Below are positions 7,852 to 50,666 of a stretch of DNA of 54,008 nt, one piece after another. The notes under the pieces were generated by a model. The model was not told where the DNA came from. It ran no database searches and saw only the letters and a list, made by a program, of their open reading frames with translations. Made by a program: the position numbers and the translations under genes. The DNA lies in NCBI GenBank assembly GCA_964407105.1, contig CAYOUG010000001.1, forward strand, positions 230,273-284,280, in the 5' to 3' direction. Numbering within the stretch: the first letter of the stretch is position 1; every line of letters begins with the position of its first letter. This stretch comes from an uncultured Candidatus Saccharibacteria bacterium (GTDB lineage: Bacteria > Patescibacteriota > Minisyncoccia > Phycocordibacterales > CALRHW01).

Positions 7852-7860
7852 AAAAATTGA

Positions 7861-7902
7861 AAAAAACCTGTTATCGACACACTGTCGATAACAGGTTTTT
7901 TT
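7861..7902. terminator. Perfect-stem (bidirectional-type) terminator
   Basis: AAAAAACCTGTTATCGACA-CAC-TGTCGATAACAGGTTTTTT. Confidence 0.85.
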
Positions 7903-7966
7903 CTTTTCTGAGTACTGTATAATATATGCAGTAACAATTTAAATCACAGGTTAATTTTAAAAAATT

Positions 7967-13615: not shown

Positions 13616-13732
13616 AGCACATAAAACAAAATAGCTCTGGAAGGGTACGGAATTTTTACAAGCTGAAATTCCTGAAGCTCTCGCGCCGTCGCGCTCGAGA
13701 CCCCCTTCCAGAGCTATTTTGTTTTATGTGCT
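13616..13732 (-). repeat. Palindromic dispersed element, copy 1 (63-bp variant core in 27-bp perfect IR)
   Basis: AGCACATAAAACAAAATAGCTCTGGAA [core 13643-13705] TTCCAGAGCTATTTTGTTTTATGTGCT. Confidence 0.93.
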
Positions 13733-15290: not shown

Positions 15291-15716
15291 ATGGCAAAGA
15301 AAATAACCAAAAAACTAAAGCTCGTTATTCCAGCAGGTAAAGCAAATCCAGCACCTCCAGTGGGTCCTGCGCTCGGACAAGCCGGTGTAAATATCGGAGA
15401 GTTTGTTAAGCGTTTTAATGATGAGACAAAAGACAAAATGGGAGACGTAATCCCAGTTGAGATTTCAGTATACGAAGACCGAACATTCTCTTTTGTTCTA
15501 AAAACTCCTCCAGCTACAAATCTTATCCTCAAAGCAATCGGTATTGAAAAAGGTTCTGGAACAAACAAAGCTAAAAAAGCCGGAAAAATCTCTAAGGCAA
15601 AAATTCGAGAGATCGCAGAAAAGAAAATGGTTGATCTTAATGCTCATGATGTGGAGGCGGCAATGAAAATTATTGCTGGGTCTGCACGGTCAATGGGTGT
15701 GGAGGTTGTTGACTAG
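15291..15716 (+). CDS. rplK: 50S ribosomal protein L11
   Basis: [36 protein letters not shown]. Confidence 0.98.
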
Positions 15717-15723
15717 GTGAAGT

Positions 15724-15840
15724 ACAAAACTCCTGTGCTATATTCCGAAAACCACGCGTCAATCGCTGGTGCGATTGCTGCTACGCTCGGCGCCGTCGCG
15801 CCTGCGCGATGCTTTTCGTAACATAGCACAGGAGTTTTGT
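15724..15840. repeat. Palindromic element, related type (18-bp perfect IR around multi-hairpin GC core)
   Basis: ACAAAACTCCTGTGCTAT...ATAGCACAGGAGTTTTGT enclosing CAATCGC-TGGT-GCGATTG and GGCGC-CGTC-GCGCC; between convergent rplK and dfr. Confidence 0.85.
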
Positions 15841-15841
15841 T

Positions 15842-16363
15842 TTACCTGCTTAAATCTACCCACAAATAACTCGGTGAAGATTCTGGGTGATCTTCTCGCC
15901 AGATTTCTTTTTTAAACTCTGCATAATCTGGGAAAAAGGCGTCGGCTTCTTTGTCGCCATCAATGAGAGTGAGATGGAGAACGTCCGCAAAAGGGAGCGC
16001 TTGATTGTAAATTTCCGCGCCACCGATGATAAAAATTTTTTGCTCGGCACCATCATTTTTTTCTTCAGCATGTTGCGTTTCAATACTTCGCGCTCGATCA
16101 AGTGCGTCTTCAAGTGACGTCGTTACAACACACCCCGGCGCCGCATAGTCTGCATTTCTAGTGATAACAATATTTGTGCGGTTGGGAAGCGGGCAGCCAA
16201 TAGATTCGTATGTTTTGCGTCCCATGATAATAGGGTGTCCGGTAGTGAGCGCTTTAAAACGCTTTAAATCCTCCGGAATTTTCCAGAGTAATTCATTGTG
16301 AAAACCAAGTCCTCGATTGTTTTTTTGAATAGCGGCAATAATATGAATTTTTGGCAATGACAT
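15842..16363 (-). CDS. folA: Dihydrofolate reductase
   Basis: GLGFHNELLWKIPEDLKRFK, IIMGRKTYESIG..LPNRTNIVITR, IFIIGGAEIY; start 16363 (alt. 16405). Confidence 0.96.
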   Translation of the reverse strand: MSLPKIHIIAAIQKNNRGLGFHNELLWKIPEDLKRFKALTTGHPIIMGRKTYESIGCPLPNRTNIVITRNADYAAPGCVVTTSLEDALDRARSIETQHAEEKNDGAEQKIFIIGGAEIYNQALPFADVLHLTLIDGDKEADAFFPDYAEFKKEIWREDHPESSPSYLWVDLSR

Positions 16364-16437
16364 TTTTGGTTTTGGTTGTAATTTGACCCACCGTAACCCC
16401 TTCATTATACTTAGGGCAATTAATAAAACCAAACCGC

Positions 16438-17031
16438 ATGTCGCATATTCTTGTAAAAAAAATTCTTGGTCCAGAGACACATTTAAAAGAGCGTTTTATT
16501 CCGGATTTTTCTACACTTTCAAAAATACTCGCCGATCTTCGAAAACAGGGAAAGAAAATTGTGCTCACGCAAGGTGTGTATGATCTCATTCACGAAGGTC
16601 ACGCACTGTATTTAGAAAAAGCAAAAGCATACGGTGATGTGCTTGTGGTGGGCGTGGATTCAGATGAGCTCACACGTGCTCGCAAGGGTCCAAACAGACC
16701 AATAGTGCCGGAGTCGGAGCGTGTCAAAATGCTTGTGCATTTGCGTCACGTAGATATTGTGACGATTCGCGAACTTAAACATGATCTTGGCGACCTCATT
16801 CGTCTGGTGAAGCCGGATGTGCTCATTACATCTTTTAGTACTGCAGATTTTACGACTGAAATGAAAAAAATGTACAAAGATTATTGCAAAAAAATTGTGA
16901 CACTTGCGCCACAGGCCACCACGTCTACCACTGCGCGCATTCGCAATCTCACGATAGAAGGTGCCGAAGAGCTTGCAAAAGAAGTACTCAAACTTACCAA
17001 CGGTTTTTTGAAAAAAATTAGAAAGATGTAA
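16438..17031 (+). CDS. Cytidylyl/adenylyltransferase family protein (RfaE-II/TagD-like)
   Basis: QGVYDLIHEGH (HxGH), LVVGVDSD, KGPNRP, C-terminal TSTT. Confidence 0.9.
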   Translation: MSHILVKKILGPETHLKERFIPDFSTLSKILADLRKQGKKIVLTQGVYDLIHEGHALYLEKAKAYGDVLVVGVDSDELTRARKGPNRPIVPESERVKMLVHLRHVDIVTIRELKHDLGDLIRLVKPDVLITSFSTADFTTEMKKMYKDYCKKIVTLAPQATTSTTARIRNLTIEGAEELAKEVLKLTNGFLKKIRKM

Positions 17032-31143: not shown

Positions 31144-31256
31144 AAACATTTGAAATTTGTCTTTCGGAGGGGGTCTCGAGCGCGACGGCGCGAGAGCTTC
31201 AGGATTTTTTAAGCTTCAAAAAATCCGTACCCGGAGAAAGACAAATTTCAAATGTT
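31144..31256 (+). repeat. Palindromic dispersed element, copy 2 (64-bp core in 20-bp IR)
   Basis: AAACATTTGAAATTTGTCTT [core 31169-31232] AAGACAAATTTCAAATGTTT. Confidence 0.95.
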
Positions 31257-31267
31257 TCTCAAAATAC

Positions 31268-37231: not shown

Positions 37232-37337
37232 AAAACAAAAACACCTTGGAAAGGGGGTCTCGAGCGCGACGGCGCGAGAGCTTCAGGATTTTTTAAGCTT
37301 CAAAAAATCCGTACCCTTTCCAAGGTGTTTTTGTTTT
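37232..37337 (+). repeat. Palindromic dispersed element, copy 3 (64-bp core in 21-bp IR)
   Basis: AAAACAAAAACACCTTGGAAA [core 37253-37316] TTTCCAAGGTGTTTTTGTTTT; between convergent rpsR and efp. Confidence 0.95.
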
Positions 37338-43340: not shown

Positions 43341-45323
43341 ATGTTTAAAACATCAAAAACTGCACGAGTTTTTGCAGGAGTTGTTGGTATCGCGATGGTT
43401 GTTGTTGCTTTTGGCGCATTTGTTGCACCAGTAAAGGCAGAAACGACTGATCTCGCAGCACTTCAAGCACTAGTTGCTTCATTGCAAGCTCAGATTGCAG
43501 CATTATCAGGCGGATCAAGTTCTACAGTTTCTGGATCAGCTCCTATGTCTCCCCTTACAGAAGGAAGCTCAGGTGCTGAAGTTACAAAACTTCAGAATTT
43601 CTTGATCTCAAAAGGCTTTGGCATTTCAGCTGGAGCTACAGGATTCTTTGGTGGTCAAACAAAGGCGGCTCTTGCGGCTTTCCAAGCAGCAAACGGAGTT
43701 TCACCTGCAGTTGGTTACTACGGTTCAGTTACAATGGCTAAAGTTGCATCAATGATGACAACTACAACCACTACAACTACAACCACAACTACAACCACAC
43801 CAGGTCCTACAACACTTGAAGGAACAGATGGTTCAATTTCTGACGTAAATGTTCTTTCACAATACTCAAACGAGGAAGTGGGAGATGCAGAATCAGATGT
43901 AAAAGTTGCTGGATTTGAAGTTGAAGCTTCAAAAGATGGAGACATTATGTTGAAATCTGTAAAACTTCATTTTGCTGGAGCATCAAATTCTGGCTCAACA
44001 AAATTGGCTGATTATGTAGATTCAGTATCTGTATGGATGGGATCAACAAAGATCGCTACTGTAGATGTATCTGACTTCAACAAAGACAGTACAGGAGTAT
44101 ACACAAAAACAGCTACATTAAAGAGTGGTGTTGTTGTAAAAGCTGATACCACAGAAAAGTTTTACATTACTGTAGATGCTATTAGTAATCTCGATTCAAA
44201 TGATATTACTGGAGATGCATGGACCGTTGATGTTGACAATATCCGATACGAAGATGGATCAGGTGTAACAACAACTGATACTGATTCAGGAGATGTTAAC
44301 GCTATGAACGTTTCGATAAACTTTGTAAGCTTCTCAACATCTGCTAACACAGAATTGAAGTTCTCTACAGATTCATCAAACAATCCTGATGCTGGTGTTA
44401 TCGTTGTCGATGATACAGACAATACAGACGGAGTTGTTCTAATGGCTGGTAAGATCAAAGTGGAAGGAACATCAGATGTGTGGATGGATGCATTACCAGT
44501 TACCTTTGTAACTACCGGTGGTGCAAATCTTTCTGCTGTTACTGGATCAGTAACATTGAATATCGGTGGTGAAGAATATTCAGAGACCACTGGCGCAAAC
44601 TGTAGTCCAACTTGTGCTTCAAACACAACAGCTACAGTAACATTCGATAATCTTGATTTCACAATGGATGCTGGAAAAACTGTAAGTTTTACAGTTTCTG
44701 CTGACATCAATGATATTGACGCTGGAAATCTTGATGAAGGAGATACTTTGGCTGCTTCTATTACTACAAACAACCGAAATTACATTGATGCGGAAAATTC
44801 AGAGGGTGATCAGTTGTCTGATTCTACAGAGAAATCTGGAACAGTTACTGGTAATGCTCAAATATTCCGAACAAGTGGAATTCAGTTGGAGTTTGTTGAT
44901 GCAACTGAAGATGCTACTGTTGGTACAAGTGCAAATGATGACGTGGGATTGTTTACAATCAAATTTAAAGTAACAGCTATTGGAGACACAGTTTATATTG
45001 CTTCAGCTGTTGCAAACGGTGCTACTTATTCTGTTGACAAGAGTGGAACAGCTACAACTGCAAACTCAATTACAGCAGCATTTGTAAATAATTCTGACAC
45101 TGATTTGACAACTACATACGGTCTATGGGAGATCGAAGAAGGTTCAAGTGAAACACTTACACTTTCTGTAAGCGTTCCATTGGGAGCAGGAGGTACATCA
45201 GGACAGTATCGCGCAGCTCTTACGGGAGTATTGTGGGGTACAAATTCTGCTGATGCTCAACCAGACAATACTTACTCATCAAATCTCGATACGTTCAAGA
45301 CCTCTTACATGGTTCTTAACTAA
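43341..45323 (+). CDS. S-layer-like secreted protein with peptidoglycan-binding domain and poly-Thr linker
   Basis: Signal peptide (VKA/E), LQALVASLQAQIAAL coil, LTEGSSGAEVTKLQNFL...FFGGQTKAALAAFQ PG-binding domain, Thr14, then T/S/D/V-rich beta domains. Confidence 0.8.
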   Translation: MFKTSKTARVFAGVVGIAMVVVAFGAFVAPVKAETTDLAALQALVASLQAQIAALSGGSSSTVSGSAPMSPLTEGSSGAEVTKLQNFLISKGFGISAGATGFFGGQTKAALAAFQAANGVSPAVGYYGSVTMAKVASMMTTTTTTTTTTTTTTPGPTTLEGTDGSISDVNVLSQYSNEEVGDAESDVKVAGFEVEASKDGDIMLKSVKLHFAGASNSGSTKLADYVDSVSVWMGSTKIATVDVSDFNKDSTGVYTKTATLKSGVVVKADTTEKFYITVDAISNLDSNDITGDAWTVDVDNIRYEDGSGVTTTDTDSGDVNAMNVSINFVSFSTSANTELKFSTDSSNNPDAGVIVVDDTDNTDGVVLMAGKIKVEGTSDVWMDALPVTFVTTGGANLSAVTGSVTLNIGGEEYSETTGANCSPTCASNTTATVTFDNLDFTMDAGKTVSFTVSADINDIDAGNLDEGDTLAASITTNNRNYIDAENSEGDQLSDSTEKSGTVTGNAQIFRTSGIQLEFVDATEDATVGTSANDDVGLFTIKFKVTAIGDTVYIASAVANGATYSVDKSGTATTANSITAAFVNNSDTDLTTTYGLWEIEEGSSETLTLSVSVPLGAGGTSGQYRAALTGVLWGTNSADAQPDNTYSSNLDTFKTSYMVLN

Positions 45324-48749: not shown

Positions 48750-48865
48750 AAAACAAAACAAAAACACCTTGGAAAGGGTACGGATTTTTTGAAGCTTAAA
48801 AAATCCTGAAGCTCTCGCGCCGTCGCGCTCGAGACCCCCTTTCCAAGGTGTTTTTGTTTTGTTTT
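48750..48865 (-). repeat. Palindromic dispersed element, copy 4 (inverted, identical to copy 3 over ~105 bp)
   Basis: AAAACAAAACAAAAACACCTTGGAAA [core 48776-48839] TTTCCAAGGTGTTTTTGTTTTGTTTT. Confidence 0.95.
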
Positions 48866-50422: not shown

Positions 50423-50435
50423 GTTGGACTGTAAA

Positions 50436-50532
50436 GTAAAAAATAAAAAGCAAAAGACAAAAAGAGTCTTTCACTAAAGCGCTTCGCTAACCCGTTCAAG
50501 ACTCTTTTTGTCTTTTGCTTTTTATTTTTTAC
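50436..50532. repeat. 35-bp perfect inverted repeat around a 27-bp core
   Basis: GTAAAAAATAAAAAGCAAAAGACAAAAAGAGTCTT [TCACTAAAGCGCTTCGCTAACCCGTTC] AAGACTCTTTTTGTCTTTTGCTTTTTATTTTTTAC. Confidence 0.9.
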
Positions 50533-50666
50533 TCCCCACTTTTCAGTTGTTCACAACTTTTTTAACAAAACTTTAGACTTTCTTGAAGTCATTTTTTTCA
50601 TAATAAACAGAGATGAGTGGCGTGTGCTACTCACATGTTCTTTGGCTATCTCAATAGGAGACGACC

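Follow-up and report, generated by a model that had tools for sequence, protein, structure and literature searches.

Small non-autonomous intergenic repeats of the Correia, ERIC, RUP and BOX types, which are MITEs, form long hairpins once transcribed, and BOX is in addition modular; members of these families have family-wide terminal inverted repeats and target-site duplications. The ends of IS200/IS605 elements, and PATEs, are recognised as folded single strands and have different hairpins at their two ends, with no terminal inverted repeats and no target duplication. They insert 3' of a fixed tetra- or pentanucleotide, depend on the Y1 transposase TnpA and are strongly biased toward the lagging-strand template. 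REP elements are single hairpins of 20–40 bp that carry an unpaired tag, GTAG or CGTC, at one end; those with the CGTC tag have no dedicated transposase, and some REP dimers lie within longer palindromes, as do GTAG-15 of Anabaena variabilis, GTAG-23 of Thermomicrobium roseum and CGTC-1 of Halothiobacillus neapolitanus (Di Nocera et al. 2013, PMC3733652). SPRITE is a terminator-like repeat near the 3' ends of genes that is strongly enriched between convergent genes and is considered parasitic, possibly a co-opted terminator; its repeated part is the 18-bp stem and the U-rich tract themselves (2011, PMC3049150).

The palindrome considered here, at 15724–15840, lies in a 54,008-nucleotide stretch of DNA (the window, C1:230273–284280) of the genome designated G000, which comprises 631 kb in six contigs and has a GC content of 38%. 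It is one copy of a family, designated B, that consists of a GC-rich, Y-shaped tip of 58–61 nt at the apex of a locus-specific, AT-rich palindrome in the position of a terminator. Two further families of tips, A and C, are present in the same genome. The closest published relatives of these hairpin tips are the REPs, including the CGTC class and the palindrome-nested examples, and SPRITE, but in those systems the stem is repeated, whereas in the tips only the apex is. Like REP, BIME and REPIN sequences, the A and B tips belong to short GC-rich intergenic hairpin repeats that lie mostly between tandem or convergent genes and covary throughout the family; they are also multi-copy and enriched behind genes, as is typical of REPs. 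In contrast to REPs, the A/B unit is a three-way junction of 58–64 nt in which GACG (CGTC on the other strand) is the loop of one arm rather than an end tag, the palindrome around it is unique to its locus, and there is no RAYT. The difference from SPRITE is that the stem and U-tract of A, B and C are unique to each locus and the apex alone is the repeated part. As compared with the Correia, ERIC, RUP and BOX elements, the tips have a constant center and variable ends, and unlike IS200/IS605 elements, A and B occur without Y1 in the genus and without a replication-strand bias. Full-text literature searches found no such elements described in Parcubacteria or in the candidate phyla radiation.

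The palindrome between rplK and folA

The palindrome begins 7 nt after the stop codon of rplK (15291–15716, plus strand), which encodes ribosomal protein L11, and ends 1 nt from the stop codon of the convergent dihydrofolate reductase gene, folA (15842–16480, minus strand). Its outer left arm (15724–15741, ACAAAACTCCTGTGCTAT) and outer right arm (15823–15840, ATAGCACAGGAGTTTTGT) are perfectly complementary over 18 nt; an A-tract forms the outer end of the left arm, and the right arm is followed by a T-tract (TTTTGTTTT, which overlaps the end of the arm). The inner left arm (15742–15751) is imperfect and contains CGAAAA at 15746–15751, facing TTTTCG at 15813–15818 in the inner right arm (15813–15822). 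Enclosed by these are a first hairpin, CAATCGC (15760–15766)-TGGT-GCGATTG (15771–15777), and a second, GGCGC (15789–15793)-CGTC-GCGCC (15798–15802). The perfect 18-nt inverted repeat and the inner CGAAAA/TTTTCG around two hairpins are thus as the first-pass annotation described them. A repeat search gave arms of 31 nt with 90% complementarity, and the two strands of 15724–15840 fold with energies of −71.5 and −74.1 kcal/mol (z = −8.9 and −9.2), values that none of 200 shuffled sequences reached. The arms have no second occurrence in the G000 genome; the GAAAA/UUUUC base formed by the inner arms is common to many family B copies.

The family B core occupies 15752–15812 (GCATCGCGCAGGCGCGACGGCGCCGAGCGTAGCAGCAATCGCACCAGCGATTGACGCGTGG) and is a 61-nt three-way-junction tip in the sense of the minus strand, scoring 85.7 bits with covariance model R1 at G000:C1:246024–246084. 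Read on that strand, the arm designated P2, which is common to family A, spans 15783–15807 and comprises a proposed lower stem GCGC/GCGU, an internal loop A / GA, an upper stem GGCGC/GCGCC and the loop GACG. The arm found in family B only, P3, spans 15756–15781 and has the arrangement GC-AG-CAAUCGC-ACCA-GCGAUUG-AC-GC.

The whole palindrome, bordered by an A-tract at one end and a T-tract at the other, is terminator-like in that a stable stem and a U-tract stand directly behind the stop codon. In five relatives the region 3' of rplK holds plain terminators of the form AAAAACCGCC-loop-GGCGGTTTTT, and the B hairpin is present in G000 only. Within the region of rplK (15291–15844), rplA is not the next gene, rplK converges on folA, and the gene that follows rplK varies among species of the genus. 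The flagged B element showed no change in strains of X2 and X4. An unstranded metatranscriptome contig runs without mismatch from 15917, in folA, to 15745 and so covers the right arm and the entire core, and a contig from the rplK side, also unstranded, ends at 15730. In further RNA contigs, A and B cores are attached to flanking sequence from other copies. The tips therefore occur in RNA; the contigs are unstranded and do not address function.

Tip families and the arm shared by A and B

The families were defined from a listing of all long genomic palindromes and from BLAST searches with the cores. Family A has a core of 64 nt and 12 copies in G000, family B, including its variant B', has a core of 58–61 nt and 13 copies, and family C has a core of 27 nt and about 10 copies. 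All 25 A and B copies are intergenic. The cores occupy the loops of long palindromes that are perfect in most cases; the arms differ from locus to locus and are rich in A at the 5' side and in T at the 3' side. Eight A cores are identical at 64 of 64 positions within unrelated arms, and only a few pairs of copies have the same arms. The ends of the A core are sharp and constant (GGGGG...ACCC), and the bases beside it vary (GGA, GTA, AGG, or none); judged from their sequences, these resemble a structural G-A internal loop more closely than a target site. Because the arms belong to the locus and the core alone is conserved, the 18-nt inverted repeat is not a transposon end; it is not a feature of the family.

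Within the window, family A copies are found at 13616–13732 (minus strand, 30-nt locus-specific arms), 31144–31257 (plus strand, 22-nt arms), 37232–37337 (plus strand, 24-nt arms) and 48750–48865 (minus strand, 29-nt arms that are nearly those of the 37232 copy). A family C copy at 50435–50533 (minus strand) has the 27-nt tip TCACTAAAGCGCTTCGCTAACCCGTTC on perfect arms of 36 nt, and this tip has a GCGAAGC-type mini-hairpin on the opposite strand. Across G000, 42 long palindromes are empty, with loops of 0–12 nt and a median arm of 14 nt, as compared with 36 filled ones with a median arm of 22.5 nt. One of the empty palindromes, at 7859–7903, has perfect 21-nt arms and a 3-nt loop (GAAAAAAACCTGTTATCGACA-CAC-...) and is a possible recipient site for tips. 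A short tandem repeat of different appearance at 43758–43811 (ACAACTACAACC...), with a period of 12–15 nt, is probably a Thr-rich coding repeat. Contig C4 of G000 (79.5 kb, 35.9% GC) is devoid of A, B and C and carries sugar and nonulosonic-acid genes that are missing from the relative G002, and therefore it may be an accessory or transferred region.

The first-pass annotation had taken GCGC-GACG-GCGC to be a functional recognition hairpin shared by modular subfamilies of elements. Counted on both strands, the 12-mer GCGCGACGGCGC is found 5 times in the window (0.01 expected) and 15 times in the 631-kb genome, where base composition predicts about 0.004. All 15 genomic occurrences lie inside intergenic palindromes, 11 of them in family A and 4 in family B. 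The proposal thus withstands the enrichment test, and the hairpin is a real module common to two families of elements: it is enriched, it is confined to intergenic palindromes, and the P2 arms of A and B are homologous. The view that the remainder of the core is unrelated between the families is correct for the A copies of G000 but does not extend to its relatives, in which A and B are alike over about 30 nt at the hairpin. The specific sequence GCGC-GACG-GCGC is not what is conserved. The stems covary freely in both families, and the A copies of the relative G003 mostly have GGCU-GUCG-AGCC instead.

Alignments of copies collected in six species of the genus (51 of A and 47 of B) indicate that both families fold as a three-way junction of a locus-specific stem P1, the arm P2 and a family-specific arm P3. 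The homology of A and B in P2 has the form UCGCG(C)AGG-stem-G[A/U]CG-stem-CCGAGCG over about 30 nt, and it is clearest where the A copies of relatives have GGCC-GACG-GGCC, which is the stem-loop of the B' variant in G000. The arm is made up of a proposed lower stem of 3–4 bp, a G-A-rich internal loop, a GC stem of 4–5 bp and a G-A/U-C-G loop. Its stem takes the forms GCGC/GCGC, GGCC/GGCC, GGCU/AGCC, GCAC/GUGC and GGGGC/GCCCC, and the parts constant in both families are the loop G-N-C-G, with A or U at its second position, the closing G-C pair and the G-A-rich internal loop. In family A, five of the seven P2 pairs show two-sided changes and 99.5% of cells are paired; in family B, P3 shows two-sided changes in five pairs with 98.9% of cells paired. 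The covariation scores of A and B were reached by none of 500 shuffles. The lower P2 stem covaries in family A, whereas the lower stem proposed for family B is without compensatory changes and has mismatches in several copies; in B, covariation therefore supports the upper P2 stem and P3 only. With P2 stems that covary and constancy limited to the loop and the G-A internal loop, what is conserved is a shape together with a few unpaired bases, and not the exact 12-mer.

Purine-rich internal loops recur on the strand that bears the GACG loop: GA/GA in the P2 arm of A, GNA/GNA beside the A core and CGAG/CGAG beside many B cores, as judged by eye in the loops examined. Such G-A internal loops can form tandem sheared G-A pairs, and the opposite strand would have pyrimidine mismatches in their place. 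The location of these purine loops on the GACG strand is the main evidence that the conserved fold is that of one single strand, either RNA or single-stranded DNA, and on this basis the fold of the strand with the GACG P2 loop appears to be conserved. A hand tally of stem mismatches found G-U and A-C about equally often (about half a dozen each) and so lends no independent support to one functional strand. A pseudoknot pairing the A junction AGCUU with the loop AAGCUU was considered and is not supported, as the junction varies; nor is a K-turn reading of the G-A loops, there being no 3-nt bulge. A search of Rfam returned nothing at the gathering score; at E values up to 10 it gave only spurious microRNA-precursor matches to the long stem of 13616–13732, and none on the flagged element.

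Distribution of tips and their probable exchange

Orthologous hairpins were compared in G000 and the fully fetched genome G003, the proteins of which have a median identity of 70%. At the site of the 13616–13732 A copy, the orthologous hairpin of G003 has a C tip on an identical arm core (AAAATAGCTCT). Other orthologous hairpins carry, in G000 and G003, respectively, A and B, C and A, A and C, or C and a B-like tip, and at one site both have A in opposite orientations. At several filled sites, the other genome has an intergenic gap of about 15 nt and no hairpin. The terminator in front of one element is of the classic type, intact and conserved. The G000 sequence at the 13616 locus has an outer left arm that resembles an inverse copy of the ancestral right flank, which suggests that palindromes grow by templated copying.

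Evidence at the level of strains comes from assembled contigs rather than raw reads. In a 14.7-kb contig of X4, from an aquatic metagenome and about 97–98% identical, the trinucleotide ACC replaces 37248–37313, the A tip together with the inner left arm; the outer arms stay, leaving an ordinary hairpin with 16-bp arms. Two facts lead us to favor loss of the A tip in X4 over a gain in G000: the A core has ACCC as its 3' end, and the orthologous site of G003 is filled by an A tip. The C element has its central 52 nt (50457–50508) in the inverted orientation in X4 and X5 contigs. As with invertible DNA segments, a stretch between inverted repeats is thus found in both orientations among strains, but for the C element neither a promoter or coding switch nor a dedicated invertase is evident, and its flipping is probably a by-product of the perfect arms. 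There is no direct repeat beside the palindromes, and none in the comparison of filled and empty sites with X4, that would correspond to a target-site duplication. An exact-protein look-up for strain variants returned none on record.

The elements are located at the 3' ends of genes, directly behind stop codons. By position, 37% lie between convergent genes, against a background of 13%, with 53% in tandem and 10% in divergent arrangements. In tandem contexts, 13 copies are in sense and 13 in antisense orientation to the upstream gene. With the origin and terminus placed by GC skew, no replication-strand bias was found, the ratio of leading to lagging copies being 8:8 for A and 5:8 for B. Free flipping between perfect arms would explain the lack of an orientation bias with respect to both transcription and replication.

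Covariance models built from the A and B alignments were used to search 301 sampled genomes of the order. B is present in 106 of these genomes (77 of 190 genera) and A in 57 (43 genera), and the highest copy numbers listed for a genome are at least 18. The distribution is wide but patchy, B being in 35% of genomes. Of the 57 A-positive genomes, 46 are also B-positive (odds ratio 12.8, p = 5e-15, without correction for phylogeny), an association that fits a shared dependency; the two models gave no cross-match in G000 or G003. In distant families, B retains its unpaired stretches (CUCGCGCAGG, CCGAGCGGAGCAG, the loop AGCA and ACGCGUGC) on stems that differ, and A cores are almost identical to those of G000 except for a lower P2 stem of UUC/GAA or UUU/AAA. 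The B elements of three distant genomes (L118, L119 and L115) have GAGCGA-like motifs in direct orientation on both sides of the arms, for example GGAGCGAA-arm...arm-GAGCGAC, which may represent either a target motif or one more layer of nesting.

The genome of G002, which belongs to the same genus and is whole (572 kb, 46% GC), has no A, B or C, and its terminators are exclusively of the classic short GC-rich type. It also lacks a three-gene prepilin-like cluster (C1:148229–152143 in G000) that is common to G000 and G003. No B element was found on viral contigs with a weak 15-base pattern, which in genome and viral contigs gave mostly chance matches in GC-rich genomes; the covariance model gave two weak viral matches of equal score, and the one inspected, L334, looks like coding sequence.

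Candidate movers and interpretation

The screen for transposases was directed at the Y1/HUH class (PF01797, Y1_Tnp). This domain is absent from all eight genomes of the genus and present in 179 of the 301 genomes of the order, in up to 14 copies. Many of the order's Y1_Tnp genes (IS200/RAYT-like) are unusually long open reading frames, of about 220–260 residues, that match only part of the domain. Across the 301 genomes the presence of Y1 is independent of both A and B, with odds ratios of 1.0, and 46 element-positive genomes lack Y1, several of them with 16–18 copies. The genes between pairs of elements encode RNase R, alanine racemase, SMC and a KH protein, and no transposase. Subtraction of the genes of the element-free G002 from those common to G000 and G003 left 28 genes, which include pilin-like, metal-handling and sugar genes, those for folate and thymidylate enzymes, and one for a protein with a NERD nuclease domain. 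The NERD protein, the only one of the 28 related to nucleic acids, was rejected as the mover because it is missing from the element-rich G001 and G005. Reverse transcriptase was rejected as a common factor, being found within the genus in G004 and G005 only.

On balance, A, B and C are probably non-autonomous hairpin-tip cassettes that are exchanged, flipped and lost at the apices of gene-end hairpins, with the fold of one strand conserved. The tips would occupy the apex of a hairpin, replace one another there, flip within it and be deleted from it, and the arms would stay with the locus. Flipping would most likely result when the two perfect arms recombine or a strand switches from one to the other; a tip would most likely be transferred by copying aimed at the hairpin apex, through template switching at stalled hairpins or some host enzyme. 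The sharp, constant ends of the core look more like site-specific insertion than loose template switching, and so count against the latter. It may be the folded single strand, in the form of 3'-UTR RNA or of single-stranded DNA, that a trans-acting factor recognises, and P2, which A and B have in common, would be the best candidate for its contact. The perfect 18-nt inverted repeat, the length of about 117 bp and the intergenic location could also describe an ordinary MITE bounded by that repeat. Such an account is hardly credible, since comparison of copies refutes it: members of one family have wholly different arms around an identical center, no target-site duplication is seen, and no insertion sequence with matching ends was noticed in passing. 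A REP-like or IS200/IS605-like miniature element, moved by an HUH (Y1) transposase that recognises GCGC-GACG-GCGC, would agree with two unlike hairpins near the two ends, with the lack of a terminal inverted repeat belonging to the element and with the frequency of Y1_Tnp in the order, and CGTC REPs without a dedicated transposase are known (PMC3733652). The involvement of an HUH protein, which the first-pass annotation had put forward, is nevertheless very improbable and, for a transposase encoded in the same genome, largely refuted. Y1_Tnp is missing throughout the genus, although those genomes that were searched for tips have many A and B copies (25 in G000), and it does not follow A or B through the order, where element-positive genomes occur without it. 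The copies show no replication-strand bias, GACG is in a loop rather than an unpaired end tag, and the sequence of the hairpin stem is not conserved. An HUH transposase encoded alongside the elements would thus not be the mover.

The main rival to hairpin-tip cassettes is a functional RNA domain in the 3'-untranslated region. The tips would then be structured ends of mRNAs, either a terminator cap that binds protein or blocks nucleases or a small RNA freed by RNase III, and their spread and flipping would be secondary. The conservation of unpaired bases across the order (CUCGCGCAGG, CCGAGCGGAGCAG and the loops AGCA and G-W-C-G) on covarying stems speaks for such a domain, and near-identical cores in different families of the order could equally mean strong selection. 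The tandem G-A motifs occur on one strand only, RNA contigs join tips to the sequence of neighboring genes, and the elements sit directly behind stop codons. However, the random orientation (13 sense and 13 antisense) means that half of the copies would be transcribed as the complement. The tips are also patchy, with 35% of genomes positive and none in G002 of the same genus; the X4 strain has apparently lost one tip and kept the hairpin; one element stands behind a classic terminator that is already complete and conserved; and there is no Rfam match. We consider a functional RNA domain rather unlikely as the primary explanation. The cassette reading can be carried further in a form that we advance only tentatively. 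A, B and C may constitute a class of mobile modules, not recognised before, whose members home to the hairpin apex by structure and have a conserved three-way-junction center, no ends of their own and borrowed terminator arms. Their spread through an order of Parcubacteria would have involved neither an HUH transposase nor, in most of the genus, a reverse transcriptase, and would have depended on a conserved host replication or repair activity, or on an enzyme, that recognises P2 on the folded single strand.

The ultra-small bacteria of the candidate phyla radiation are thought to be poor in mobile elements. About one-third of the sampled genomes of this order hold conserved folded modules, in up to at least 18 copies, at the places where transcription ends and without a matching transposase. 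Annotation pipelines should take the tips into account, as these cause breaks in short-read assemblies and mimic microRNA-like hairpins. If movement guided by structure is true, the tips would exemplify a novel route of DNA spread and readily supply variation in terminators; if they are functional RNAs, they would be a widespread, unannotated class of RNA in these genomes.
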